DNA of 64,000 bases from a virus. Made by a program: the position numbers and the translations under genes. The notes under the pieces were generated by a model. That model did no database searches, was not told where the DNA came from, and saw only the letters and a list, made by a program, of their open reading frames with translations. The stretch spans positions 64,001 to 128,000 of the IMG/VR virus record IMGVR_UViG_3300021962_000028, one strand, 5' to 3'. Of the stretch, positions 6,912 through 62,692 are shown in pieces; the stretch's first letter is position 1, and every line of letters begins with the position of its first letter.

Positions 6912-7697
6912 TTATTTCAAAGATTTGTTAATCTTCTCTTGTAATGATAGTCTTTCATCTGTTAGTTTATTTTCAAAATCATAAAGTTTTTCAATATACC
7001 CATTTCGTCTTAGTACCTTAAATACCAAGTTTTCGTTAGAATATTCTCCACCCTTTTCTAAACCACACTGTCTAAATTTCTTTATTTTTTCTTTATATTT
7101 TTTGATTAATTCTTTAGCATCCTCTAGTTCTTCATCTCCAGCGTTTTCAATTACACCGTCAATTATTTCCATCCATTGTTCTGATTTATGTTTAATCTCA
7201 TCAATGTTAATACTAACGTCTTCTTTTTTTGGTTTCTTAATCCACTCATCGAATAATACAGAATAAACCCCCGTACTTTCGTGAGGTTCCTTTTCATCTT
7301 GAGCATACAACTCAACTTCATATTTTTTTATAGTAATGTCGTGAGTGTTGTTGAACAACATTTTTTTAAGATTAAAAAGTTTTTGATATAACTCAACTGA
7401 TTCTTTTGGGAATTGGTCAAAGTCGATTAATAAGTGTAAATCAAAGTCTGAAAATTTTGACCAATTATAATTTGATAGTGACCCTGTTAGAATTATATCA
7501 CCAACAAATACTGGAACGTCTAAGAACTCTATAAATTCATAAGCTATCTCAAGTAGTCTTTCTCTAATTTCAGGTTTCATAGTTTCAACCTGTCCTTTAG
7601 GGTCGGACATAAATCTTTCGTTGGGTAATACCCAAACATCAGGATTTAATTCATCCTGCAATAAAAAACTTTTTAAAATTTCAGATTGTTGTCCCAT
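6912..7697 (-). CDS. Pol-beta superfamily nucleotidyltransferase
   Basis: GSLSNYNWSKFSDFDLH matches the GS...DxD motif, with a later E-L-Y acidic strand. Confidence 0.7.
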   Translation of the reverse strand: MGQQSEILKSFLLQDELNPDVWVLPNERFMSDPKGQVETMKPEIRERLLEIAYEFIEFLDVPVFVGDIILTGSLSNYNWSKFSDFDLHLLIDFDQFPKESVELYQKLFNLKKMLFNNTHDITIKKYEVELYAQDEKEPHESTGVYSVLFDEWIKKPKKEDVSINIDEIKHKSEQWMEIIDGVIENAGDEELEDAKELIKKYKEKIKKFRQCGLEKGGEYSNENLVFKVLRRNGYIEKLYDFENKLTDERLSLQEKINKSLK

Positions 7698-19868: not shown

Positions 19869-20101
19869 TATGTATTAAATTGTTCCCACCAAGTAGGAAT
19901 GTTAACTAATATGGCAACCTCAACAATTACCATTAAAACTCTACCGAAAGTTGTTGTAAACGCCCACCAATGAAATGGATTAAAGTCCCAAGCTATAAAA
20001 CTACCAAGTAGGTAAAAAATCCCGTTAGCTATTACTAACGGGAGTGTTATCATCCAAATCACTTCTAAAAATGCGTTTATTTTATACTTCAACTTTTCCA
20101 T
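19868..20101 (-). CDS. Small membrane protein
   Basis: Two hydrophobic helices. Confidence 0.5.
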   Translation of the reverse strand: MEKLKYKINAFLEVIWMITLPLVIANGIFYLLGSFIAWDFNPFHWWAFTTTFGRVLMVIVEVAILVNIPTWWEQFNT

Positions 20102-20102
20102 A

Positions 20103-20513
20103 TTATACTGTGTGTTCTATTTGTACTCTAATACAATCTTGAGGTAATCGATTGATATGTCGGTAGTTATTAATATACCCCATCATATTTGCACTGCCAA
20201 TAGCATTCGCAGAGTGGACTACAACGTTCACAACAGGTTTACCGTCCATCCATTGTTCCACTAACCATTTAGTACAATCCATACCTGTTTTTTCGGTGAT
20301 GTTATCGTAGTTCAATTCGTAGTTATGGTAAACATTTTTATGCCACTCCGCCATTGCAGTGTCACCTAAATCGTGGTCCAAAGAAATCAAACTAATATTT
20401 TCCAATCCAATCTCGGTCACTTTTTCTACAAATTCATCGTAAGAACGAACAACAACCCATTGGTCTTTTTCAACAGGAGTTCTTACATCATCCAAATATA
20501 TTCTTTGTTTCAT
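20103..20513 (-). CDS. Cyclic-phosphate-processing receiver-like domain protein
   Basis: IYLDDVR...ISLDHDLG...TGMD...VHSAN..G; start reassigned to MKQRIY. Confidence 0.75.
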   Translation of the reverse strand: MKQRIYLDDVRTPVEKDQWVVVRSYDEFVEKVTEIGLENISLISLDHDLGDTAMAEWHKNVYHNYELNYDNITEKTGMDCTKWLVEQWMDGKPVVNVVVHSANAIGSANMMGYINNYRHINRLPQDCIRVQIEHTV

Positions 20514-20559
20514 ACTATAATTTTTTTTACTAATTTTCTTCATTTGACAAATATATGGA

Positions 20560-21060
20560 TTAACTACCAACTTTCCAAGCGAAGTTTACAATCTTTCTTT
20601 TTTTAACTGCGTCTTCAGTATTACCAATAACAACACCATCTTTAATTGTAAACGCGTGTCTACTAACACACATAACATAAGTTCCTTTTGGGTATTTTTT
20701 AATAAAAGTACCTACGGTCATTTTACGATTAACTTTCTTACCTTTTACTGTAACAGTATACTCAAGAGTGTTGAAAGACGAATGTTCAATAGGTTTCCCC
20801 ATTTCTTTACAACATTTACGACCAATACGAACACGGTCTTTAGCGAATTTATTCATTCCAGGAATGAATCCAAAAGTACCTTGTCTTGGTTTACGTCCAA
20901 ATTTATCAGCAACAAATTTATGAGCCTTATCATATTCAATATCAAATGCCGATGCTATCGCACGAACAACACAGTCATTAGTTTCAGATTTTGCGATAGA
21001 AGAATTATCATAACCTTTAATCGCTTCGGATGTCTTACAGTATGGTAGTTGATTTTTCAT
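20560..21060 (-). CDS. Hypothetical phage protein (DCVVRAI family)
   Basis: NDCVVRAI...H...DG Cys/His pattern. Confidence 0.55.
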   Translation of the reverse strand: MKNQLPYCKTSEAIKGYDNSSIAKSETNDCVVRAIASAFDIEYDKAHKFVADKFGRKPRQGTFGFIPGMNKFAKDRVRIGRKCCKEMGKPIEHSSFNTLEYTVTVKGKKVNRKMTVGTFIKKYPKGTYVMCVSRHAFTIKDGVVIGNTEDAVKKRKIVNFAWKVGS

Positions 21061-21105
21061 AAGACAAAGATATGAAGAATATTTTAATTGGCAAAGAAAA
21101 ATATG

Positions 21106-21191
21106 CGGAAGATGAGGGGCTCGAACCCTCGCGACTTTAACATCCTACCTGTTTAGCAAACAGGCCCCTTCACCAACTTGGGTAATCTTCC
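21106..21191 (-). tRNA. tRNA-Ser(GCT)
   Basis: Cloverleaf, CCTGT-TT-GCT-AA-ACAGG, long variable arm. Confidence 0.92.
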
Positions 21192-21196
21192 AATAG

Positions 21197-21268
21197 TAGT
21201 CCCTGAGGGATTCGAACCCCCACTAAAACATCCGTAGTGTTTCGTGCTCTCCGTTACACCAAGAGACT
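21197..21268 (-). tRNA. tRNA-Arg(ACG)
   Basis: AAACA-CT-ACG-GA-TGTTT. Confidence 0.9.
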
Positions 21269-21274
21269 GTACAT

Positions 21275-21478
21275 CTAATTAAAGGTATATTTCATATCTT
21301 CATTAAAGATAAAAACATTACCTTCTTGAGTTATACCTAACTTACTCAAAACAATATTAAATTCTTCTTGAGTGAAAAATTTAGATTGTACCAACCTGTA
21401 ATACGAGTTTAATAAATCAACTATCTCAGGTTCTGAAATTTGATGGGTGTTTAATAATTCATTTAATTTGTCTGTCAT
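21275..21478 (-). CDS. Small hypothetical protein
   Basis: Likely start MTDKLNELL; the upstream extension in the ORF track overlaps structured RNA. Confidence 0.5.
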   Translation of the reverse strand: MTDKLNELLNTHQISEPEIVDLLNSYYRLVQSKFFTQEEFNIVLSKLGITQEGNVFIFNEDMKYTFN

Positions 21479-21504
21479 ATATTTTAGGATTTTAAGTGTC
21501 AGAA

Positions 21505-21915
21505 TAAAAAGGTCCTGAATCATCCCTCCGCCTTCTGAGGAGAACCTTTTAGTTTTTAGTATAGTTTGGCGTTCATAGTATCCCACACCGATATGACTAA
21601 GATTCGTTAGCCCATAGTAACCATCCACGGTGGGTCTGTACTCTCACCCATATTTCAGGGTTACCCTCAGAACATCTTCACCCTACCCCCAAAGTTACGT
21701 GGCGAGTCTCACTCGGAAGACAGAGTGTGTATTGTAAGATTGTTCAGTGTTCTTACAACTTGTGGATTGTATTACGACTAATTAAAGCCCCTCACCCCCT
21801 TAATCCATAATGGGGAATCCTTGTTTGTTTGTGTAGCCTCCCCCATAGCCTTGAAGCCTTCAAGTCAGGTTCACACTCCATAACGGTAGGATATTTCCGT
21901 TAATCGTGGGGTCTT
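21505..21915 (-). ncRNA. Candidate structured non-coding RNA(s), about 410 nt
   Basis: GC-enriched spacer in the tRNA operon with hairpins such as TAACGG/CCGTTA, TTGTAAGA/TCTTACAA and AAAGGT/ACCTTT. Confidence 0.45.
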
Positions 21916-21918
21916 TTG

Positions 21919-22003
21919 CGGAGGAAGTAGGATTCGAACCTACGGTACCTTGCGGTACGCTAGTTTTCAAGACTAGTGCAATCGACCACTCTGCCATTCC
22001 TCC
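21919..22003 (-). tRNA. tRNA-Ser(TGA)
   Basis: CTAGT-CT-TGA-AA-ACTAG, long variable arm. Confidence 0.93.
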
Positions 22004-22102
22004 AATTTAGGTCGTCACGAACCCATCTGTGACTTATTACTAGATACTTGTAGTTTACTTACTATAGTTTAATCCGTTACTACAAGGGAACCCAACCTAT
22101 CG

Positions 22103-22176
22103 GGTGACTAACGGGAATCGAACCCGTGACAACTTGAACCACAATCAAGTGCTCTGCCTACTGAGCTATAGCCACC
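22103..22176 (-). tRNA. tRNA-His(GTG)
   Basis: CTTGA-TT-GTG-GT-TCAAG; encoded G-1 and C73. Confidence 0.92.
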
Positions 22177-22390
22177 ATATTAATCGTTCAATCATTTTTG
22201 ACTGTCCCCAATACCGAATTTCAGCGGCAACTCACTTTTGTGAGGGGTTAGAACTTGTGTGTTAACTTACTCCTGTTACTGGTACACTAACCAACCGACT
22301 TAGACTCAAGTAATCGGCTCAGGTCCCTATGGTTGTAACACCACTTCTCATCATTCGGGAGCAAACTAGTCGTGTACTACTCGACTCGTG

Positions 22391-22492
22391 TAGTCAGGAC
22401 AGGATTCGAACCTATTCCGTCTTTGCCATAAAGAGTCATCCGTACTGTTACTCAACCTTGGGGAGGTGACACCAACCAATGGTCTCCTGACT
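22391..22492 (-). ncRNA. tRNA-like RNA with non-canonical anticodon/variable region (102 nt)
   Basis: AGTCAGG/CCTGACT acceptor stem and GGTTCGAATCC T-arm, but no standard anticodon arm. Confidence 0.65.
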
Positions 22493-22497
22493 ATTTG

Positions 22498-22631
22498 TAA
22501 TCAAGGTCGGACTCGAACCGAATACCGTTCAAGACGGATTAGACAACCTTACGACTCCATAGACCCCACAAGTGTCTGGGACTATTGGTCTTGGGGACTC
22601 GGGCACCGTCCCTCATTACGCCCACTTGATT
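22498..22631 (-). ncRNA. tRNA-like RNA with enlarged body (134 nt)
   Basis: AATCAAG/CTTGATT acceptor, GGGC/GCCC D-like stem, TCGG-TTCGAGT-CCGA T-arm. Confidence 0.65.
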
Positions 22632-22706
22632 ATTTACCCCACTTCACCAGGTTAACGGACTGGCTGCCATATGGGAGTGGGGGTTTCCCGTTAATTCGGG
22701 ACTCCG

Positions 22707-22779
22707 TGGAACGGGGCGGAATCGAACCGCCGACACCTTGCTCTTCAGGCAAGTGCTCTACCAACTGAGCTACCGTTCC
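22707..22779 (-). tRNA. tRNA-Phe(GAA)
   Basis: CTTGC-CT-GAA-GA-GCAAG (G37). Confidence 0.92.
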
Positions 22780-22784
22780 AAGTA

Positions 22785-22921
22785 TGATAATGATGGAGTA
22801 CCCGTCTCGCTCCAATCTTAACTGCTTTCCTGAGTTTTAGGAGGCCTCGGCAGAAAGGGTGATGAACTATTTTTCCATTCGGAATTGTCGACATTCCATT
22901 GAATGGTAAGAACCATTATCA
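22785..22921 (-). ncRNA. Candidate multi-stem ncRNA, about 137 nt
   Basis: Closing stem TGATAATG/CATTATCA enclosing three hairpins. Confidence 0.55.
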
Positions 22922-22932
22922 ATATTTTAAAA

Positions 22933-23159
22933 ATTGGTGAGACCTTAAGATTTACTCATTCGTGGGTCACCCCATCCGTTCTACCTAGACCTCGCCTTTA
23001 ACATCCGTTCTACCCAAACCATCGTTTTTACCTGTTAACCTTTCGGAAAACTTTGAGTACCTCCTCAATGAGTTAATCTGATAGGGGCTCCATCTTGCTC
23101 GTCATTTCTGACTCCCTATGGGGTTCTGCTGATATAGGTCTATCTGCTATCTTACCAAT
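22933..23159 (-). ncRNA. Candidate structured ncRNA, about 227 nt, with a duplicated 13-mer
   Basis: Closing stem ATTGGTAAGA/TCTCACCAAT, inner stem AGATTAACTCATT/AATGAGTAAATCT, GGTAGAACGGATG twice. Confidence 0.55.
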
Positions 23160-23167
23160 CTAATTAT

Positions 23168-23245
23168 TCAAAGAACTCTTTTGACAGGGGAGTAGGTCAC
23201 CAACTTACCAACTACCTACCCCCCTTCAACCACATTACAAATGTA
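23168..23245 (-). promoter_or_regulatory. Internal TAnnTTTG promoter, leader hairpin and boxA-like element
   Basis: tacatttg (23238-23245), a GC-rich hairpin at 23187-23224, gttctttga (23168-23176). Confidence 0.6.
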
Positions 23246-23278
23246 CGGCAAATTATTTAATTCTCCAAACATTTTTTG

Positions 23279-23350
23279 TAGTTCCTGTAGGATTCGAACC
23301 TACGACAACTTGTATGTAAAACAAGGGCTCTTCCACTGAGCTAAGGAACT
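23279..23350 (-). tRNA. tRNA-Val(TAC)
   Basis: CTTGT-TT-TAC-AT-ACAAG. Confidence 0.92.
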
Positions 23351-23356
23351 GTTAAG

Positions 23357-23428
23357 TACCGATGGGAAGAATTGAACTTCCGACACCTTCCGTATGAAAG
23401 AAGTGCTCTACCACTGAGCTACATCGGT
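23357..23428 (-). tRNA. tRNA-Met(CAT), elongator type
   Basis: Paired 1-72; TT-CAT-AC loop as in bacterial elongator Met tRNAs. Confidence 0.8.
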
Positions 23429-23482
23429 ATTTTGGTGGACGTAGACTCATCACCTACTCTTGGGTTTCCACCGAACCCCTTG

Positions 23483-23553
23483 TTGTCCCTGAAGGATTCG
23501 AACCTCCACCGCGTGGACCAAAACCACGTGTCCTGCCATTAGACCAAAGGACA
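23483..23553 (-). tRNA. tRNA-Gln(TTG)
   Basis: CGTGG-TT-TTG-GT-CCACG; U1-A72. Confidence 0.92.
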
Positions 23554-23609
23554 GTTTGACTGTTTTTCCGATATTTATAGACTGGCATAAACCTTTAATC
23601 AAATTTATA

Positions 23610-23774
23610 ATGACTAAAGAACAAATCCAAGGTATCGTTAGACACGCACTTACTTTTGTGGGTGGTATCCTGATTATGAAAGGTCTTGCAACTGATTCAA
23701 CAGTTCAAGAACTTATCGGAGCTGCAGTTACATTAGTTGGTGGTGTATGGTCAATTATTGCTAAACAGAAATAA
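23610..23774 (+). CDS. Small two-TM holin-like protein
   Basis: MTKEQIQGIVRHALTFVGG...VGGVWS; TATTTATA upstream and a terminator downstream. Confidence 0.65.
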   Translation: MTKEQIQGIVRHALTFVGGILIMKGLATDSTVQELIGAAVTLVGGVWSIIAKQK

Positions 23775-23792
23775 TTGATAACGACCTAATCG

Positions 23793-23826
23793 AAAAAGAG
23801 GGGATTTATATCCCCTTTTTTATTTT
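23793..23826. terminator. Bidirectional intrinsic terminator
   Basis: aaaaagaggggat-ttat-atccccttttt. Confidence 0.7.
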
Positions 23827-23827
23827 G

Positions 23828-23908
23828 TGGGAGTGGAGGGATTCGAACCCCCAATGTCGTAAGACCACTGATTTACAGTCAGCTAAGCAACCGTTGCTCA
23901 ACACTCCC
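23828..23908 (-). tRNA. tRNA-Tyr(GTA)
   Basis: GCTGA-CT-GTA-AA-TCAGT, long variable arm. Confidence 0.9.
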
Positions 23909-23911
23909 AAT

Positions 23912-24048
23912 TTAGGAAAACAGAAGATGGTTCAGTGGACATCTGTTTTTACGATTAGCGTTACTCGGGTGAATACCTGCAAACTCCGATTATATTAGTC
24001 AGTATTCACTCTCGAACTATCAATACAATCATTCCCTAATCAACCTAA
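23912..24048 (-). ncRNA. Candidate structured ncRNA, about 137 nt
   Basis: TTAGG/CCTAA closing stem plus GATTAG/CTAATC, GTGAATAC/GTATTCAC and AAAACAGA/TCTGTTTT stems. Confidence 0.5.
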
Positions 24049-24056
24049 TTTTTTTG

Positions 24057-24128
24057 CGGCCAGGGAGAATTACGATATCTCGACCTATCGCTTAACAGGC
24101 GATTGCTCTTCCTCTGAGCTACCTGGCC
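24057..24128 (-). tRNA. tRNA-Asn(GTT)
   Basis: ATCGC-CT-GTT-AA-GCGAT; atypical T-loop ATCGTAA. Confidence 0.88.
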
Positions 24129-24133
24129 ATTTG

Positions 24134-24206
24134 CACGCCTACCAAGATTCGAACTTGGAACAACAGTTTTGGAGACTGTGATGATAAACCGTTTCACCAT
24201 AGACGT
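24134..24206 (-). tRNA. tRNA-Trp(CCA)
   Basis: ACAGT-CT-CCA-AA-ACTGT. Confidence 0.92.
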
Positions 24207-24211
24207 ATTTG

Positions 24212-24283
24212 AGGTCGGTACAGGAATCGAACCTGTGTAGATAGTTTTGCAGACTATCGCCTAAACCACTCGGCCAACCGACC
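24212..24283 (-). tRNA. tRNA-Cys(GCA)
   Basis: ATAGT-CT-GCA-AA-ACTAT; U73. Confidence 0.93.
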
Positions 24284-24289
24284 CTATTG

Positions 24290-24364
24290 TGTCCCCGACA
24301 GGACTCGAACCTGTGACTCCCTCATTAAAAGTGAGGTGCTCTAAACCAACTGAGCTACGAAGAC
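24290..24364 (-). tRNA. tRNA-Lys(TTT)
   Basis: CCTCA-CT-TTT-AA-TGAGG. Confidence 0.93.
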
Positions 24365-24370
24365 ATTAAG

Positions 24371-24444
24371 TTGTCACAGATGGGCTCGAACCATCGACCT
24401 TTCGCGTATCAGGCGAACGCTCTAACCAACTGAGCTATGTGACA
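24371..24444 (-). tRNA. tRNA-Ile(GAT)
   Basis: TTCGC-CT-GAT-AC-GCGAA. Confidence 0.92.
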
Positions 24445-24450
24445 ATGTTG

Positions 24451-24522
24451 TCGGGGTGGCGGGAGTCGAACCCGCCGCCTCGTGTTCCCAAAACACGCGT
24501 CTCTCCTCGAGACTACACCCCG
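24451..24522 (-). tRNA. tRNA-Pro(TGG)
   Basis: CGTGT-TT-TGG-GA-ACACG; C1-G72. Confidence 0.92.
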
Positions 24523-24543
24523 TTTACTTTTCTTACCAATATG

Positions 24544-24552
24544 TCAAAGAAC
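24544..24552 (-). promoter_or_regulatory. boxA-like element (GTTCTTTGA)
   Basis: Lies between attenuator terminator 1 and the first tRNA. Confidence 0.65.
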
Positions 24553-24562
24553 ACTTTATTAC

Positions 24563-24594
24563 AAAAAAAAATCCTGAACTTTTTGAGTTCAGGA
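24563..24594 (-). terminator. Attenuator terminator 1
   Basis: UCCUGAACU-caaaa-AGUUCAGGA followed by a U-tract. Confidence 0.8.
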
Positions 24595-24631
24595 CTTTGA
24601 TATATTTGTTGTATGTTTTTCTAAAATTACA

Positions 24632-24742
24632 TTACACTAAATCATCATTAACTGAACTTGTATGCGAAATACGCGGATACGAACAATTACTAAATTGTTG
24701 TTTCCAAATCACGACGTTCATATGTTTATTAGTGTTTTTCAT
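24632..24742 (-). CDS. Leader peptide 1 (36 aa) MKNTNKHMNVVIWKQQFSNCSYPRISHTSSVNDDLV
   Basis: Not in the ORF track. A-rich start context, TAnnTTTG promoter at 24788-24795, anti-terminator AGUUCAG (24652-24658); codons match the downstream tRNAs. Confidence 0.8.
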   Translation of the reverse strand: MKNTNKHMNVVIWKQQFSNCSYPRISHTSSVNDDLV

Positions 24743-24829
24743 TTTTTCTATTTGTTGTGGTATCTCTACCTGTTTCTATAATTACTACAAAGTTACGAAA
24801 AATTACGTAATTGTCAAATATTTTTTATT

Positions 24830-25414
24830 TTATTTTAAAAAAGATAATACTTTTTCTTTAATACCAGATTGTTTTAACCCTTCATTACCTCTTGGAGTCA
24901 ATACAAAATTTTCTAAACCCCAATCGTGAACCCATTTAATCGAATACGACATCCCTTCTTTACCCATATCAAGGTCGTCGATAGCTACCCACTCAGTAAC
25001 CTCAGGATGATTCTTTAAGTATTGGTTGATTTCCAATGTACGAGTCTGTTCTAAATCCCAATCTCTATTCCAAGGGAACGAACCATCGTAGTTATTACAT
25101 TCACTTAAGTTAGGTGTAAAGGCGATTGGTTTTTTATTAATTCCTTGGGACTCGTAATACTCTCCCATTTCCTCAACGGTACACCATCTTTTCCAATCTG
25201 ATGATACCACAATTTCCGCACCAGTTTTTTCCAAGATTTCGTTAAGAACTTTAATAGCTTTCTTATTGAAATTATCAAAACGGTATTCTAATGGCATTTC
25301 CTTTGGGGTCATTGATAACTTTTGACCGTCCCATTTATTTCGTTTCTTATAACGACCACCCCACTCTGTGGATAAACAGATTACTCCGTCGTGGTCTAAA
25401 AATATAACTTTCAT
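24830..25414 (-). CDS. HAD-family phosphatase (RNA-repair-associated HAD type)
   Basis: FLDHDGV, SSDWK and AIDD motifs; start reassigned to MKVIFLD. Confidence 0.8.
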   Translation of the reverse strand: MKVIFLDHDGVICLSTEWGGRYKKRNKWDGQKLSMTPKEMPLEYRFDNFNKKAIKVLNEILEKTGAEIVVSSDWKRWCTVEEMGEYYESQGINKKPIAFTPNLSECNNYDGSFPWNRDWDLEQTRTLEINQYLKNHPEVTEWVAIDDLDMGKEGMSYSIKWVHDWGLENFVLTPRGNEGLKQSGIKEKVLSFLK

Positions 25415-25686
25415 TTTTTTTCTATTTTTTTTAAAACCATAGACGACCATTTTTGTCTTGGCCCGTTTTTCATTAACACCTCGTTGATAAAAGTCTCAGC
25501 ATCAGGAAGATTGTTGAATTTTAGAACGGTGTTGTAAGACCCACTCTCATAACATTCTTTATACTTTACGTACGACCACCATTTAAACCATAAAAATTTT
25601 TTAGATTCTTTTATACAGAAATGAACTTGGTTACTAATACCATTCTCATTAAAATAATCTTCTCTAATAATCAGGTAACTTTTCAT
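25411..25686 (-). CDS. Hypothetical protein
   Basis: 91-aa ORF after a TAnnTTTG motif. Confidence 0.5.
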   Translation of the reverse strand: MKSYLIIREDYFNENGISNQVHFCIKESKKFLWFKWWSYVKYKECYESGSYNTVLKFNNLPDAETFINEVLMKNGPRQKWSSMVLKKIEKK

Positions 25687-25701
25687 AGTACAAATATACG
25701 A

Positions 25702-25869
25702 CTATTTTTTAATAATATAACCATATTGGTTTAAAATTAGAATAATCCCTAAAATGGATAAACCAAGACAAATTATTTTAACAATAACGTCAATGAATGT
25801 TTTCTTACTCCATATAACCCCAAAGATTAGGAATATAATTGTCGCAATAATATTGAATATAAGTTGCAT
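25702..25869 (-). CDS. Small two-TM membrane protein
   Basis: Likely start MQLIFN; the longer track ORF overlaps a tRNA. Confidence 0.5.
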   Translation of the reverse strand: MQLIFNIIATIIFLIFGVIWSKKTFIDVIVKIICLGLSILGIILILNQYGYIIKK

Positions 25870-25890
25870 ATTTGTTTTTTTAGATATTTG

Positions 25891-25964
25891 TGGTCCATAC
25901 AGGACTTGAACCTGTGACCTTCTCATTATGAGTGAGCTGCTCTAACCAACTGAGCTAAAGGACC
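25891..25964 (-). tRNA. tRNA-Ile2(CAT), probably lysidine-modified and reading AUA
   Basis: GGTCCTTTAGCTCAGTTGGTTAGAGCAG...CT-CAT-AA body resembles bacterial Ile2 tRNAs. Confidence 0.75.
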
Positions 25965-25970
25965 TATTTG

Positions 25971-26043
25971 AGCCTCCTGTAGGATTCGAACCTACGACCC
26001 CTTCATTACAAGTGAAGTGCTCTACCAGCTGAGCTAAGGAGGC
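25971..26043 (-). tRNA. tRNA-Thr(TGT)
   Basis: CTTCA-CT-TGT-AA-TGAAG. Confidence 0.93.
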
Positions 26044-26328
26044 CTATTTAATTTTCTTATATACGTAAGTTATTGTGTCCCCTATTTTGTAGATATCGTC
26101 CCTATCTGTTGAGAATGCTTGTCCGCACTCTGTTTTGTAGTAATATTTTGGAGTTAATTCATTAATTGCCACAGGTTGTTTAACCCAAGAACTATCTATA
26201 ACGCATTTAACAACTTTGTCCCCTGGTTCAATTTTATTTCTATTTTCACACCCTGTTAATACAAAGGCAATAATACCAATTAATAAAAACCAAATAATGG
26301 CAAATACGTACGGTGCGAACTTTTTCAT
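26044..26328 (-). CDS. Putative lipoprotein
   Basis: Hydrophobic signal ending in LTGC. Confidence 0.55.
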   Translation of the reverse strand: MKKFAPYVFAIIWFLLIGIIAFVLTGCENRNKIEPGDKVVKCVIDSSWVKQPVAINELTPKYYYKTECGQAFSTDRDDIYKIGDTITYVYKKIK

Positions 26329-26347
26329 ATATTATTTTTTTTGTAAT

Positions 26348-26602
26348 TTAAACAACCAAATACTTTATAGAATTTTTTTTAATCCATTCTGAATCATATT
26401 TAAACTCCTTCCAATTGTCGAAGTCCTTAAGTTCTTCTAATACCTCATTAGGTACTAATGTAAACCCTTCAGGTGCAATACCATCAAATTTATGATATGC
26501 AGAATGTTCTATTTTTTCTTTCATCATTTGACAGAATAACTCACTTTTGATAAACTCATTATGTTCTTCTTCAAATACAATATCTTGATTAATATCAACC
26601 AT
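26348..26602 (-). CDS. Hypothetical protein
   Basis: 84-aa ORF. Confidence 0.5.
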   Translation of the reverse strand: MVDINQDIVFEEEHNEFIKSELFCQMMKEKIEHSAYHKFDGIAPEGFTLVPNEVLEELKDFDNWKEFKYDSEWIKKNSIKYLVV

Positions 26603-26617
26603 AATTTCTTAATTTAG

Positions 26618-26689
26618 TAGCCCCACCAAGAATCGAACTTGGAACTAATCTTTAGAAGAGATTCGTTATATCCATTTAACTATGGAGCC
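26618..26689 (-). tRNA. tRNA-Arg(TCT)
   Basis: AATCT-CT-TCT-AA-AGATT. Confidence 0.92.
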
Positions 26690-26694
26690 ATTTG

Positions 26695-26871
26695 TTAGAC
26701 TTTTTTAACTAAGTAAACGTGACCTGAGTCTGAGTTTTTAGAAAAAATATCTCTCATTTTAATTGCTTCTTCCTCGGTTTCAAATTCCCATATTTCAGAG
26801 TGACCATCTAATATGATAACAGGAACTTTAACTCCGTTAAGACTTTCCATTAATTTTACAATTACCCACAT
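26695..26871 (-). CDS. Small hypothetical protein (58 aa)
   Basis: Manual translation MWVIVKLMESLNGVKVPVIILDGHSEIWEFETEEEA...; promoter motif at 26890-26897. Confidence 0.55.
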   Translation of the reverse strand: MWVIVKLMESLNGVKVPVIILDGHSEIWEFETEEEAIKMRDIFSKNSDSGHVYLVKKV

Positions 26872-27106
26872 AATATTTTATTTACACTACAAATTTAGTA
26901 AAAATTATCCGAATTTACAAATTAAAACAACTTTTAAGTGAAAATAATATAAAAAAAATTATTACTAACAGAATTGAGTAACCGAAAACTTTATTATTTC
27001 TTTCAACCTTTTCTTTTGAACGACCTTGCCATTCATCAGAATCCCATACTTCAGAATCCCATTCTTCATTTTCCATACTTAATAAGTATTACTAAATTTA
27101 TTTGTG

Positions 27107-27178
27107 CGGTCTATGAGGGAATCGAACCCTCCTCACTACCGTGACAGGGTAGCATCCTAGCCGATGAACGAATAGACC
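27107..27178 (-). tRNA. tRNA-Asp(GTC)
   Basis: CTACC-CT-GTC-AC-GGTAG; G73. Confidence 0.92.
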
Positions 27179-27186
27179 AATTTTTG

Positions 27187-27259
27187 CGGTCCCGACGGGA
27201 TTCGAACCCGTACCTCGCACCGTGACAGGGTGGAATTGTAACCATTCAACCACGGGACC
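27187..27259 (-). tRNA. tRNA-Asp(GTC), second divergent copy
   Basis: CCACC-CT-GTC-AC-GGTGC; G73. Confidence 0.9.
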
Positions 27260-27265
27260 TTTTTG

Positions 27266-27338
27266 AGCGGAAGACGGGACTCGAACCCGCAACCCCCGAC
27301 TTGGAAGGACGGTGCTCTACCAATTGAGCTACTTCCGC
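27266..27338 (-). tRNA. tRNA-Gly(TCC)
   Basis: CCGTC-CT-TCC-AA-GTCGG; U73. Confidence 0.92.
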
Positions 27339-27418
27339 ATTTTTGGGTAGAATCAGACGCGTTCTGTCTACCGAGACCTCGTCGTTAACTTTCGTCAGAG
27401 CGGACCGAGACACTTTTG

Positions 27419-27492
27419 TTGCGGGTGAGGGACTCGAACCCCCGTCTTTGGCTTATGAGACCAAGCTGGAACCACCTCCAGTCTAACCCACG
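27419..27492 (-). tRNA. Initiator-like tRNA-Met(CAT)
   Basis: C1.A72 mismatch; TTGGT-CT-CAT-AA-GCCAA. Confidence 0.8.
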
Positions 27493-27503
27493 ATATATTA
27501 TTT

Positions 27504-27593
27504 GTTATCACTTCAGCCACATCGTGAAAGCCGCCCCTCACGCGTTGTTTAAAGGAATCCGATTGCGGCCTCATCCTACTGAGTTATGATAAC
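27504..27593 (-). ncRNA. Candidate small structured RNA (90 nt)
   Basis: GTTATCA/TGATAAC closing stem and GCCGCA-ATCG/CGA-TGTGGC inner stem. Confidence 0.45.
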
Positions 27594-27597
27594 TTTG

Positions 27598-27669
27598 TTG
27601 CGGGAGGAGGATTCGAACCTCCGACCTCAAGGTTATGAGCCTTGCGAGCTACCACTGCTCTATCCCGCG
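27598..27669 (-). tRNA. Initiator tRNA-fMet(CAT)
   Basis: CGCGGGATAGAGCAG start, C1.A72 mismatch, CAAGG-CT-CAT-AA-CCTTG. Confidence 0.88.
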
Positions 27670-27675
27670 ATGTTG

Positions 27676-27749
27676 TGGAGATGGTGAGAATCGAACTCAC
27701 CCCAGATTGATTGCAAATCATTCTCGTCGGCCTTGAGACATACACCCCC
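27676..27749 (-). tRNA. tRNA-Ala(TGC)
   Basis: G3.U70 identity pair, TT-TGC-AA loop, atypical D and anticodon stems. Confidence 0.82.
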
Positions 27750-27756
27750 ATTTTTA

Positions 27757-28020
27757 TTATGAATACTTTTTAGCGATATTCATAATAGTATCTTCATCTT
27801 CTTTACTCATTCTATGATAAGAATTTGCTAAAACATCACAATAATCCCTATGAGTTTCCTCAATTAGTGTATATTGATTTGGTTTACCAGGACCCTTACT
27901 ATTTTTAGTTAAGTGACCTCTTTCGATTAATTCATCAATTAATTCATTAATTTCACTTTTAGAGCATTCATCAATAAATTCATAAACCTCTAAATCAATG
28001 TAAGTGCTAAATTCAGGCAT
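27757..28020 (-). CDS. Hypothetical protein
   Basis: 87-aa ORF within the tRNA operon. Confidence 0.55.
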   Translation of the reverse strand: MPEFSTYIDLEVYEFIDECSKSEINELIDELIERGHLTKNSKGPGKPNQYTLIEETHRDYCDVLANSYHRMSKEDEDTIMNIAKKYS

Positions 28021-28040
28021 AATAGTTATTTTTAAGTTTG

Positions 28041-28112
28041 TAGTCCCTACGGGAATCGAACCCGTCTTTTATCCGTGAAAGGGATATGTCCTAACCGATA
28101 GACGAAGGGACC
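28041..28112 (-). tRNA. tRNA-Glu(TTC)
   Basis: TATCC-CT-TTC-AC-GGATA. Confidence 0.93.
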
Positions 28113-28147
28113 ATTTTTAAATCTTTTACAAAGATACAACCAATATT

Positions 28148-28156
28148 TCAAAGAAC
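28148..28156 (-). promoter_or_regulatory. boxA-like element (GTTCTTTGA)
   Basis: Just downstream of attenuator terminator 2. Confidence 0.65.
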
Positions 28157-28170
28157 AAAATTTTACAAAT

Positions 28171-28200
28171 AAAAAAACCCATCTCTTTTGGAGATGGGTT
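28171..28200 (-). terminator. Attenuator terminator 2
   Basis: AACCCAUCUC-caaaa-GAGAUGGGUU followed by a U-tract. Confidence 0.82.
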
Positions 28201-28224
28201 CAGTGAATTCATAGTATAGGAATA

Positions 28225-28299
28225 TCACACCATCTCCATTGGAGTAGTCGCTTCAGTTCTATCTGTCCCGCCTATTAGTATGATATGTATTGTTTTCAT
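28225..28299 (-). CDS. Leader peptide 2 (24 aa) MKTIHIILIGGTDRTEATTPMEMV
   Basis: Not in the ORF track. Anti-terminator UGGAGAUGG (28230-28238) is complementary to the terminator 5' arm; codons match the downstream tRNAs. Confidence 0.8.
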   Translation of the reverse strand: MKTIHIILIGGTDRTEATTPMEMV

Positions 28300-28361
28300 T
28301 TGCAGTTTTACTTGTTTTTTATTAAATATACGTATGTAACGTAAAAAGTCAAATTTTATTT

Positions 28362-30152
28362 TTAAAAATTAAATCCTCCCCCTCTTTTTGTGTTAATTCC
28401 ACTTGTTCTACCCGTCTTTTTACCAGATGGGACGGTATATGGTATTACAACATCTCTACTATTCTGTCTTTTTTGGTCAATTAAATCCTTGTCAATTTTT
28501 TTAACAACTTTTTTATCGGACAATAATGATAAAATATTCTTACGAATATCTTCTACCGTACTATTATCTGACTTTTCAATTGATTTAGATGTAGCTTCAT
28601 TATTAGTATTGACTAACTTACTATCGGTATCTACAAACGTATTTTTAGAATAAACTTGTTTTAACGTATCAATAGTACTGTGTTGGGGGGTATCAATTAC
28701 GGGTTTAGTGGCCGTATTATAATAATAATTGATTTTACCGATGTCAGTTTTAGGGTAAATTCTAATAAAGGTAGAAGTCTTTAATTCATCTAATGGTCCA
28801 AAATTTGTTTTTGAATTTGTTAACTCAATATAATGTTTTCGTAATTTAGAACCATAGTTAGTTTCAGGATTAGTCGTTAATCCATTTTCGTGAATTCTTC
28901 GATAAAATAATGTTTCCTCAATTCGTTTAAAGGTCACACCATTTTTTTGGGTTCTAACCATAAAATCCGAATCTGCCGCACATCTCCAACCCTCAAAACC
29001 ATTAAAATGGTGAAAAATATGTTTTCTAATTCCAAAAACCCCTTCACCAAATAAATTAGAATATGTTTTATATTTTGGGTCATCGTAATTAATTTCTTCT
29101 TTAAAGTCGTGATACATAGGTTTAACACATTCATAATCAGTAAGGGTATTAATTATCTTGAAAACCATATCATCCGACATAACATCGTCAGAATCAAAAA
29201 ATATTAAATTTTCTGTTTTAGAAATTTTTGACAATGTATTCTTAATAACATAAGGACCAACATTTTCTTCAAAGTAAAATAACTTAATTCTAAAATCGAA
29301 TATGTTTTCTCGCACAAACTTTAAAGTTTTTTCACATTTATCAATTCCAACTAAGATTTCAAAGTTTTGTAATTGATTACAAGAATTAACTACAGAATCT
29401 AAACATTCTTTTAAAAAGTCCACATTATTAAATGTTGGTATAATAACCGAAACTTCTTTATCCAAATAGGATTCGTTAGTAAGGGTTGTTTGAATAAAAT
29501 CGGAACGTAAATCTTTTTCATAGATAGACCCTTCAAAATTTTGTTGGGTAACGTATCCGCTATTATGTTTTGCACATATAATATCAATGTTATTTTCTTT
29601 AGCATATTTACCAATCCATACATCCGCCATATTTGGTCTATCAAAATATTCTATTGGAACTTTAAATAAATCAGTATGGAAACACATAACACCTGTCCCA
29701 CCAAATTGAACTTTAGTATCTTGAGATAAAAGTTGTTTAAAGTGGTATACTGAAGTATTACGTCCATAAAAACTATTAATAGGAAATGAGTTAAATGTTC
29801 GAGCGTGTAAAGTAATAATCGACTTCCTTTTATATTGATTAACCTTATCAATCATATATTCAGTGTAGTTTTCAGGGTAAATTAAGTCGTCATCTATGGT
29901 GAAAAAATACCCGTCGGAATTCATTAAATTATAAAATTTATAAGCATCCCCTCTATCATTATCCGAAATAAATAAATTTATTTTTTTATCATACAGTTCA
30001 GGTGGAATCTCGGTATAATCATTTAATGCTACATTTATAATGTCAGATTGATTATAAATCGATTCAATAGTTTTAATCAGAGTATCCCCTCTTTTATAAC
30101 TGGCGACATTATATATTACTTTATCCATACTTTTTTTAAAATTATATTGCAA
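28362..30152 (-). CDS. Two-domain GT-A glycosyltransferase (GT2-like)
   Basis: FTIDDDLIYP in domain 1; VSVIIPTFN...FFDSDD...ADSDF in domain 2. Confidence 0.85.
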   Translation of the reverse strand: MQYNFKKSMDKVIYNVASYKRGDTLIKTIESIYNQSDIINVALNDYTEIPPELYDKKINLFISDNDRGDAYKFYNLMNSDGYFFTIDDDLIYPENYTEYMIDKVNQYKRKSIITLHARTFNSFPINSFYGRNTSVYHFKQLLSQDTKVQFGGTGVMCFHTDLFKVPIEYFDRPNMADVWIGKYAKENNIDIICAKHNSGYVTQQNFEGSIYEKDLRSDFIQTTLTNESYLDKEVSVIIPTFNNVDFLKECLDSVVNSCNQLQNFEILVGIDKCEKTLKFVRENIFDFRIKLFYFEENVGPYVIKNTLSKISKTENLIFFDSDDVMSDDMVFKIINTLTDYECVKPMYHDFKEEINYDDPKYKTYSNLFGEGVFGIRKHIFHHFNGFEGWRCAADSDFMVRTQKNGVTFKRIEETLFYRRIHENGLTTNPETNYGSKLRKHYIELTNSKTNFGPLDELKTSTFIRIYPKTDIGKINYYYNTATKPVIDTPQHSTIDTLKQVYSKNTFVDTDSKLVNTNNEATSKSIEKSDNSTVEDIRKNILSLLSDKKVVKKIDKDLIDQKRQNSRDVVIPYTVPSGKKTGRTSGINTKRGGGFNF

Positions 30153-33015: not shown

Positions 33016-33039
33016 TACATTTGTACCATAGTTCTTTGA
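33016..33039 (+). promoter_or_regulatory. TAnnTTTG promoter plus boxA-like element
   Basis: tacatttg at 33016-33023 and gttctttga at 33031-33039. Confidence 0.65.
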
Positions 33040-33042
33040 AAC

Positions 33043-33128
33043 GCTCGGGTGGTGGAATAGGTAGACACGTCAGACTTAAAATCTGATGGACCGTAAGGTC
33101 CGTGCGGGTTCGATTCCCGCCCCGAGTA
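33043..33128 (+). tRNA. tRNA-Leu(TAA)
   Basis: TCAGA-CT-TAA-AA-TCTGA, long variable arm. Confidence 0.93.
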
Positions 33129-33342
33129 CTAAGAGTAAGGGATACTCTGAAAGTTTGGTAACGTTCTTTATAAATGTTATAGTTGTCGCCTTCCACGACT
33201 TTAGAGAGGGGGTTCGTCGGATCCTGGACGTAACAAATCCACCGAGTATGTTTGACTTTTATGTGCGGGTAAGACCGTCTCGTGTTTTCAATAGGAAAAC
33301 AGAAGAAAAATCCACTCACCGTAATCTCAGGTGGGTACTCAC

Positions 33343-33422
33343 ATCAGAGTGGTGGAATTGGTAGACACGTATGCCTTAGGAGCATATGCTACGGCGTGAG
33401 GGTTCGAGTCCCTCCTCTGATA
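33343..33422 (+). tRNA. tRNA-Leu(TAG)
   Basis: TATGC-CT-TAG-GA-GCATA. Confidence 0.93.
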
Positions 33423-33441
33423 CTAAATTTAAAATTTAAAT

Positions 33442-62640: not shown

Positions 62641-62692
62641 TTCAATATTTAAATGATAAGTACATTATTTTAAAATGTCAAATCTTTTTTTG

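Follow-up and report, generated by a model that had tools for sequence, protein, structure and literature searches.

Control of amino-acid operons by translation of a leader peptide is textbook biology. The enterobacterial leaders of thr (Thr and Ile) and ilvGMEDA (Ile, Leu and Val), together with trpL, hisL, pheL and leuL, form the multivalent set with which we compare a candidate attenuator located upstream of 15 transfer RNA (tRNA) genes in a phage genome. The element lies in a 64,000-nucleotide (nt) stretch, hereafter the window, which covers positions 64,001 to 128,000 of IMG/VR record IMGVR_UViG_3300021962_000028 and in whose own numbering positions are given. The virus DNA is a single contig of 158,622 base pairs (bp) with 32.5% G+C; all 28 tRNA genes of the whole genome fall inside the window, and the host is probably of the Bacteroidota type. 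We propose, with a probability of about 0.78, that the locus is a ribosome-mediated transcription attenuator of the trp/his type that would control the first of two tRNA arrays.

The phage element shares with the enterobacterial leaders a promoter-proximal short open reading frame (ORF), codons lying upstream of a segment that pairs with the 5′ arm of the terminator, and a terminator with a U-run; as in thr and ilvGMEDA, more than one input would be read by a single ribosome. It departs from them in its target, because 15 tRNAs stand downstream instead of the enzyme genes for the sensed amino acid that strictly define a trpL- or hisL-type leader, and the product would feed back on the signal. 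Its inputs number 15, with one to three scattered codons each, whereas the enterobacterial leaders carry runs of codons for one to three amino acids. It also differs in its setting, a phage of Bacteroidota, in the boxA behind it and in a weak pairing between regions 1 and 2. In Bacteroidetes, messenger RNAs (mRNAs) have no Shine-Dalgarno sequences and favour start regions rich in A (PMC6847099).

A choice between terminator and anti-terminator also ties a component of translation to the state of its cognate tRNA in pheST (pheM leader) and in T-box systems. There the targets are aminoacyl-tRNA synthetase or amino-acid genes and one tRNA is sensed, whereas the phage element would act on tRNA genes and sense fifteen; T-boxes, moreover, bind uncharged tRNA directly, without a ribosome. 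An Rfam scan of positions 20000-29000 (E-value up to 1) returned tRNAs and chance-level matches only, with no T-box and no other cis-regulator. The boxA recalls that of ribosomal RNA (rRNA) operons (rrnTAC), since the same 20-mer, present in 16S-23S spacers and 16S leaders of Bacteroidota, heads an untranslated stable-RNA operon, and it recalls lambda nut in that a phage would borrow the Nus machinery of its host. Unlike in both, the phage boxA is located downstream of a putatively regulated intrinsic terminator, so that only polymerases that have passed the attenuator would be modified; unlike in lambda, no N-like protein or boxB was identified.

Anatomy and codon content of two leaders

On the minus strand, the gene of a 206-amino-acid (aa) protein (24830-25450) is followed by a promoter, a 36-codon ORF (leader 1), an intrinsic terminator, boxA and tRNA-Pro, the first tRNA of array 1 (Table 1). 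From the promoter onwards, this order is that given in a preliminary description of the window, the coordinates of which are correct. The dedicated promoter, between the upstream gene and the ORF, is the sole intergenic TTGAC..TAnnTTTG combination in the genome and is conserved in three related loci (L001, L003 and L004, see below); the primary sigma factor of Bacteroidetes recognizes the consensus TTTG/TANNTTTG (PMC6847099). The ATG of leader 1 lies ∼41 nt past the predicted transcription start in a region that is unpaired in the minimum-energy fold, with A at positions −1 to −5 and no Shine-Dalgarno sequence. The ORF is intact in all relatives found, despite 31% DNA divergence, and the terminator stem co-varies in L003, L104 and L137. 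No sequence in the 40 nt between the T-run of the terminator and the first tRNA fits a promoter. A promoter role for boxA was ruled out in the window, where no TAnnTTTG lies between it and the tRNA.

The codon content of leader 1 matches the array behind it. As had been claimed, every one of the 15 array tRNA classes finds a cognate codon within codons 2-24 under strict wobble rules, and Gly, Ala, Glu, ATA and AGA codons are missing from this part. The accompanying claim that ACT is the only unserved codon needs amendment: ACT is indeed unserved, but so is GTC (codon 10), unless it is read by Val-TAC through relaxed wobble. The CAT tRNA of the array, earlier assigned to elongator Met, has the paired 1:72 end of elongators, a feature compatible with Met and with Ile2 (carrying lysidine) alike. 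Four of the synonymous codons used are rare, CCG, TCG, GTG and CGT making up 6%, 7%, 9% and 15% of their own families genome-wide; their readers in array 1 are Pro-TGG, Ser-TGA, Val-TAC and Arg-ACG, respectively. The tail of the leader (codons 28-36) contains Thr, Asp and Leu codons, which are served by other tRNAs.

Such coverage is far from what random codons would give and is not reached by other ORFs. By exact inclusion-exclusion, a random set of 23 codons would represent all 15 classes with a probability of 1.2 × 10−7 with the codon usage of the genome's genes, 1.7 × 10−6 with that of small ORFs (mostly non-coding) and 2.1 × 10−6 with mononucleotide frequencies; over all 35 codons it is 4 × 10−5 to 5 × 10−4. 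The best of the other 459 ATG-initiated ORFs of 25-80 codons in the whole genome covers 12 of the 15 classes, and the best of 40,992 23-codon windows in 166 long ORFs covers 13.

A second candidate attenuator of the same layout, absent from the preliminary description, precedes array 2. Its 24-codon leader contains ACA, GGG, GAT, AGA, GAA/GAG, GCG and ATG, and thereby represents all seven tRNA classes of that array. Coverage by each of the two leaders is 100% for the array behind it but falls to 40-43% for the other array, a specificity that rules out the idea that both merely mirror the codon usage of the phage. The tRNA-Leu pair (at 33043) and a second tRNA-Phe (at 62692) form contrasting units, with neither an ORF nor a hairpin between promoter and tRNA.

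Table 1. Positions in the window of the two proposed attenuators, their tRNA arrays and two tRNA units without attenuator
Feature	Position	Strand	Description
Promoter of leader 1	24788-24818	minus	−33 TTTGACA (24818-24812), 19-nt spacer, −7 TAACTTTG (24795-24788); Bacteroidota sigma-A type
Leader ORF 1	24632-24742	minus	MKNTNKHMNVVIWKQQFSNCSYPRISHTSSVNDDLV; ATG at 24742, 36 codons, stop 24634-24632
Sensor codons 2-24	24671-24739	minus	cognate codon(s) for each of the 15 downstream tRNAs
Candidate region 1	24716-24720	minus	UGAAC in codons 8-9; pairs with the anti-terminator in the full-length minimum-energy fold; 5 bp, weak
Anti-terminator segment 1	24652-24658	minus	AGTTCAG, codons 29-31; complementary to terminator 5′ arm
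Intrinsic terminator 1	24560-24598	minus	13-pair GC-containing hairpin (24598-24568) and run of nine T; CTGAACT at 24592-24586
boxA 1	24533-24552	minus	GTTCTTTGACATATTGGTAA, 20-mer between terminator and first tRNA; tRNA-Pro 10 nt further
Array 1 (putatively regulated)	21105-24522	minus	15 tRNAs: Pro, Ile, Lys, Cys, Trp, Asn, Tyr, Gln, Met(CAT), Val, Phe, His, Ser-TGA, Arg-ACG, Ser-GCT; two tRNA-free gaps of ∼500 nt and inserted ORFs
Attenuator 2	28140-28353	minus	same layout, before array 2
Promoter 2	28323-28353	minus	TTTGAC (28353-28348), 19 nt, TATATTTA (28330-28323)
Leader ORF 2	28225-28299	minus	MKTIHIILIGGTDRTEATTPMEMV; 24 codons
Anti-terminator 2	28230-28236	minus	GAGATGG
Terminator 2	28175-28201	minus	
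boxA 2	28140-28156	minus	GTTCTTTGAAATATTGG
Array 2, behind leader 2	25890-28112	minus	Glu, Ala, CAT, CAT, Gly-TCC, Asp, Asp, Arg-TCT, Thr-TGT, CAT
tRNA-Leu-TAA and tRNA-Leu-TAG	33016-33423	plus	contrast unit; promoter TACATTTG (33016-33023), short boxA-like GTTCTTTGAAAC (33031-33042)
Second tRNA-Phe-GAA	62692-62860	minus	contrast unit; promoter and boxA-like TGTTCTTTAAAAC

Relatives and independent leader families

Among 80 IMG/VR loci retrieved with the upstream 206-aa gene, synteny is kept in three. The leader region of L001 is 95% identical to that of the window; those of L003 and L004 are 69% identical and encode MRTNKQHMSIINVVKQFSNCWYPRMAFIGSVVDETN. The layout of leader, terminator and boxA is conserved, and codons 2-24 of L003 and L004 again represent all 15 classes in a permuted order, TGG having moved from codon 13 to codon 21 and TCG from codon 21 to codon 9. 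An apparent lack of tRNA-Trp in L003, in spite of the TGG codon, turned out to be an ARAGORN miss, since Rfam places tRNA-Trp (anticodon CCA) at 7061-7132 of that locus. In the same array, an inserted ORF for an HNH-endonuclease-like product of 182 aa (L003, 7204-7752, plus strand) separates tRNA-Trp from tRNA-Asn. Close relatives were not found among GenBank phages, from which only generic tRNA matches were returned; a megablast search with 20 kilobases (kb) of the window gave no match, and the 206-aa protein found only matches of 26-29% identity there.

Independent families were picked in metagenome and viral collections by boxA and hairpin, codon content not being used. The blind pipeline took a boxA, a hairpin with T-run at most 45 nt upstream of it, the nearest ATG-initiated ORF of at least 18 codons and the ARAGORN tRNAs downstream, and yielded at least 43 sites, at least 31 of them non-redundant. 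The same architecture thus appears in at least about a dozen unrelated leader families from phage and metagenome contigs. Leader L216, MKTYNIHTQNISQKDFYPVWGMFWLGE, precedes tRNAs K V W Y I P Q H N E M D T G M and covers 14 of 14 classes. In L248 two leaders were found: MKTFSKHMISSKQSQIVIVYRSWSPCGSYDSPKCFIS, before S Q V H R S P I W Y, covers 10 of 10, and MKNLNNILNARTEGDNPTVTEMV stands before T L E D L G A. Under strict wobble, 10 of 11 classes are covered in L225 (MKQNSKHNVTNLPINVGQTWFTIKGQDCRKFRVLNKM; N K W T I F G G D Q L) and 9 of 10 in L165 (MKTTTTYKLEVVKTEMGADSLTQGPGMLCKS; S D V E T K M M A G L). Leader L137, MTLVNKHNVNQFKQFCIQNWYIRMFNSSGDLG, is followed by F I Q K V Y C H R W L F N M, and a leader rich in Ser and Ile (L160) by Ser-TGA, Ile-TAT and Ile-GAT.

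Across these families the codon content of the leader tracks the tRNA content of its array. When leaders and arrays of eight families were permuted, the true pairing was the single best of 40,320 by recall, precision and F; with 12 leader/array pairs, none of 200,000 random permutations reached it. Mean recall was 0.95 for true pairs versus 0.73 off the diagonal. Absences agree as well: L137 has no Pro or Ser tRNAs and no Pro or Ser codons in the sensor part of its leader, and L288 lacks Glu codons along with a Glu tRNA in the available part of its array, whereas its relative L165 has both. These two cases indicate that gain and loss of tRNAs and of codons go together.

Most leader families begin with MK(x)1-3(N/x)KH or MKNLHI (the window, L087, L101, L117, L167, L216, L225 and L230), with a His codon (CAT or CAC) near codons 5-7 in most of them, even where no tRNA-His follows. 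This recurrent start may be an element at the RNA level (part of region 1) or a requirement of initiation or early elongation.

The switch and its possible readings

The alternative pairing on which attenuation would depend had been noticed earlier as a complementarity between AGUUCAG of leader codons 29-31 and the terminator 5′ arm. It is present, the corresponding fold exists, and the two sides co-vary. When the transcript is cut short of the 3′ arm, its minimum-energy structure includes the AGUUCAG:CUGAACU helix, with an inner stem enclosed by it. At full length the terminator prevails, and AGUUC is left in a weak pairing with the UGAAC of codons 8-9. With ribosome masking, equilibrium folds always favour the terminator once the 3′ arm exists; the choice must therefore be kinetic, as it is in attenuators generally, and folds cannot settle the direction of the switch.

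The complementarity behind the anti-terminator is significant across families. Over 12 families, the longest complementary runs between each leader and its own terminator 5′ arm sum to 81, versus 53.4 ± 3.0 in shuffles (maximum 65, n = 2,000), and the mean longest run is 6.75 with own arms versus 4.5 with those of other families; the complementary segment always falls within the last codons of the ORF. The 7-bp core is unbroken in nine of nine relatives of leader 1, with three positions changed on both sides (A:T to G:C twice, G:C to A:T once). These pairs were counted by a script anchored on the GTTC/GAAC cores, as MAFFT had the terminator 5′ arm out of register. In L383, leader segment AGATTCAG pairs with 5′ arm CTGAATCT and the 3′ arm is still AGTTCAGG, which assigns the covariation to the anti-terminator helix itself.

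The spacing is also suggestive. In three divergent relatives, the last first-occurrence sensor codon ends 12 nt before the anti-terminator. The size of the ribosome footprint is established, and this gap would approximate the reach of the leading edge of a stalled ribosome. Leader 2 and its relatives resemble trp in having the anti-terminator immediately next to the stop codon.

The boxA call of the preliminary description is borne out by identity with the boxA of Bacteroidota rRNA spacers. The 20-mer is identical to the motif between tRNA-Ala and 23S rRNA in two bacterial contigs (L108 and L129), and 68 matching stretches were found in species-representative genomes, most of whose record titles name Bacteroidota taxa (Bacteroides, Chitinophagaceae, Saprospiraceae, Lewinellaceae and Sphingobacteriales). 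Most of the matches are inside or next to rRNA operons, where they follow tRNA-Ile/tRNA-Ala or precede 16S; a tRNA array follows in none of the 68, so that attenuated host tRNA operons were not seen there. Because the 20-mer matches the boxA of rRNA operons, the phage appears to have copied this host element to a place behind its attenuator. The rrn operons of Escherichia coli carry boxA behind the promoter and again ahead of 23S; the Nus antitermination complex requires this element, which also suffices for it (PMC10250234). By analogy, the phage boxA would shield a long untranslated array, including its antisense holin gene and a bidirectional hairpin.

In the mechanism that we infer, host RNA polymerase would start at the Bacteroidota-type promoter and transcribe the 36-codon leader, which a ribosome would translate while the polymerase proceeds to the terminator. 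If all of codons 2-24 are decoded fast, the ribosome would reach codons 27-37 and cover or unwind the anti-terminator (AGUUCAG and the inner stem), the terminator hairpin would form and transcription would stop. Slow decoding, at any one sensor codon or in sum, would make the ribosome lag; AGUUCAG would then pair with the 5′ arm as this emerges, and the polymerase would read through, meet boxA, presumably become a Nus-factor antitermination complex and transcribe the untranslated 15-tRNA array. The second, complementary attenuator would control the other tRNA block. Since the sensor codons are those that the array tRNAs read, the circuit would provide direct product feedback on the usable tRNA pool, host and phage together. 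A multi-input OR gate had been proposed earlier; the multi-codon attenuator in that proposal is supported by the sequence comparisons, but a leader with one to three codons per tRNA may be closer to an integrator, which sums decoding time over all the codons, than to a strict OR gate.

Several observations weigh against this reading. The UGAAC:GUUCA pairing of regions 1 and 2 amounts to only 5 bp in the full-length fold. In leader 1, 17 nt separate the end of the anti-terminator from the stop codon, so that a ribosome at the stop would mask the inner stem only and not AGUUCAG. Each tRNA is represented by few codons, whereas the his and phe leaders have codon runs, and many codons of leader 2 are unserved by its array (precision 0.43). 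Among the other families, the L244 leader is far richer than the short array behind it, L197 is a counter-example in which a CAT tRNA follows a leader with no internal ATG, and in several arrays one tRNA is unrepresented in the leader under strict wobble. Further loci of the leader 1 type, sought with a DNA pattern (L381-L394, on contigs of 37-322 kb), have similar tRNA sets in a different order and an additional TTTG..TAccTTTG promoter between the terminator and a boxA variant, GTTATTTGAMATATTGG; with a promoter after the terminator, these arrays need not depend on read-through. Finally, a hairpin with a T-rich stretch lies inside array 1 itself (23816-23799).

Some of these points would be explained if the same hardware followed another logic, in which read-through needs active translation of the leader (a positive feedback, with the array made only if its tRNAs are already functional) or the leader senses the coupling of transcription to translation, or translation capacity at large, and not the supply of the particular tRNAs. 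A ribosome on the stop codon of leader 1 that leaves AGUUCAG uncovered, a truncated transcript that folds as anti-terminator with no ribosome at all and the many unserved codons of leader 2 are all in keeping with it. We nevertheless consider it unlikely: the sensor codons lie upstream of the anti-terminator, with the 12-nt gap in three members of the leader 1 family close to the leading edge of a stalled ribosome, the leader-2-type arrangement at the stop codon is that of trp, and a general sensor has no need of a codon set specific to the array down to the synonymous codon. An even less probable account takes leader 1 for an ordinary small phage gene with a functional peptide, the array being expressed by leaky read-through or from other promoters. 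The N-terminal pattern that recurs across families (MK..NKH/MK.LHI), even without a downstream tRNA-His, and the promoter after the terminator in some relatives speak for such a gene; yet neither leader peptide has a family match in Pfam or PHROGs, relatives differ in the order of residues but share the codon set, leaders of unrelated families are composed in accordance with the tRNAs downstream, and the 3′ end of the ORF co-varies with the terminator arm at the RNA level. Chance, that is, a spurious ORF in an AT-rich spacer before the terminator of the upstream gene, gains something from the 460 ATG-initiated ORFs of 25-80 codons in this AT-rich genome, but it is effectively refuted by a coverage probability of 10−7 to 2 × 10−6, by the other 459 ORFs stopping at 12 of 15 classes, by recurrence of the pattern, once more in the window and in about a dozen families elsewhere, and by the dedicated promoter.

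Within the attenuator reading, the physiological trigger is a more tentative matter. Anticodon nucleases or starvation were suggested in the preliminary description; the trigger may be cleavage of host tRNAs or simply the balance of tRNA supply and demand. Phages of Bacteroidota might keep their tRNA arrays under a sensor of the tRNA pool, with each array on when the matching tRNAs of the host fail, for instance through cleavage by an anticodon-nuclease defence or through the phage's own host shut-off, and off once phage tRNAs restore decoding; we regard this as conceivable, though doubtful on balance. If true, the leader would be a counter-defence sensor with one input per tRNA.

Surroundings of the arrays and meaning of the finding

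The 206-aa protein encoded directly upstream of leader 1 matches PF18143 (E = 1.6 × 10−21), the HAD domain of ‘Swiss Army Knife' RNA-repair proteins, and weakly a polynucleotide-kinase PHROG. A gene for an RNA-repair-type HAD phosphatase between two tRNA arrays would fit a theme of tRNA damage, though it is no proof of it; more than 200 relatives of the protein occur in IMG/VR, most without nearby tRNAs.

Array 1 had been called a 15-tRNA operon. All 15 tRNAs are present, but ORFs interrupt the series, among them a holin gene (Phage_holin_10, E = 2 × 10−17; 23556-23774, plus strand) lying antisense between tRNA-Tyr and tRNA-Gln, with a bidirectional terminator hairpin at 23794-23821; L003 has no gap at the position of the holin gene. 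Two stretches of ∼500 nt each on the minus strand (22176-22705 and 22780-23277) contain no convincing ORF, and ARAGORN and Rfam made no call in either. The former has T-arm-like motifs, GGTTCGAATCC and GGTTCGAGTCC, and a fold z-score of only −0.96. These tRNA-free stretches may be decayed tRNA genes or RNAs of another kind.

An initiator-like feature is found in array 2. A C1:A72 mismatch is typical of bacterial initiator tRNA, and two CAT tRNAs (27418-27492 and 27597-27669, minus strand) have C1 opposite A72, one of them scoring only 38 bits with Rfam. The third CAT tRNA of this array (25890-25964) may be Ile2; leader 2 has three ATA codons. In relatives, a tRNA-Gly-GCC adjoins Gly-TCC (L001, 4029-4102; L004, 2961), whereas the window has Gly-TCC only (27339-27417); leader 2 keeps a GGC codon, which is GGT in L004. 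This looks like a recent loss of Gly-GCC from the window that leader 2 has yet to follow.

A full-text literature search gave no account of leader-peptide control of tRNA genes, nor of a leader sampling 15 tRNAs. The mechanism is classical; what is new lies in the target, the number of inputs, the direct feedback by the product, the occurrence in a phage of Bacteroidota and the link to boxA, in which a phage is seen borrowing the rRNA boxA of its host. For annotation, a short ORF with a hairpin before a phage tRNA array is to be taken for a regulator and not for a hypothetical protein. The element would be a compact multi-input translation sensor for hosts that lack Shine-Dalgarno-led initiation, and a part for engineering. 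Why phages carry tRNA arrays and at what times they use them is debated, compensation for codon usage being set against the replacement of tRNAs that infection destroys. If a circuit responds to how fast precisely the codons served by its array are decoded, it would tell what the phage measures and make the question of tRNA arrays testable.

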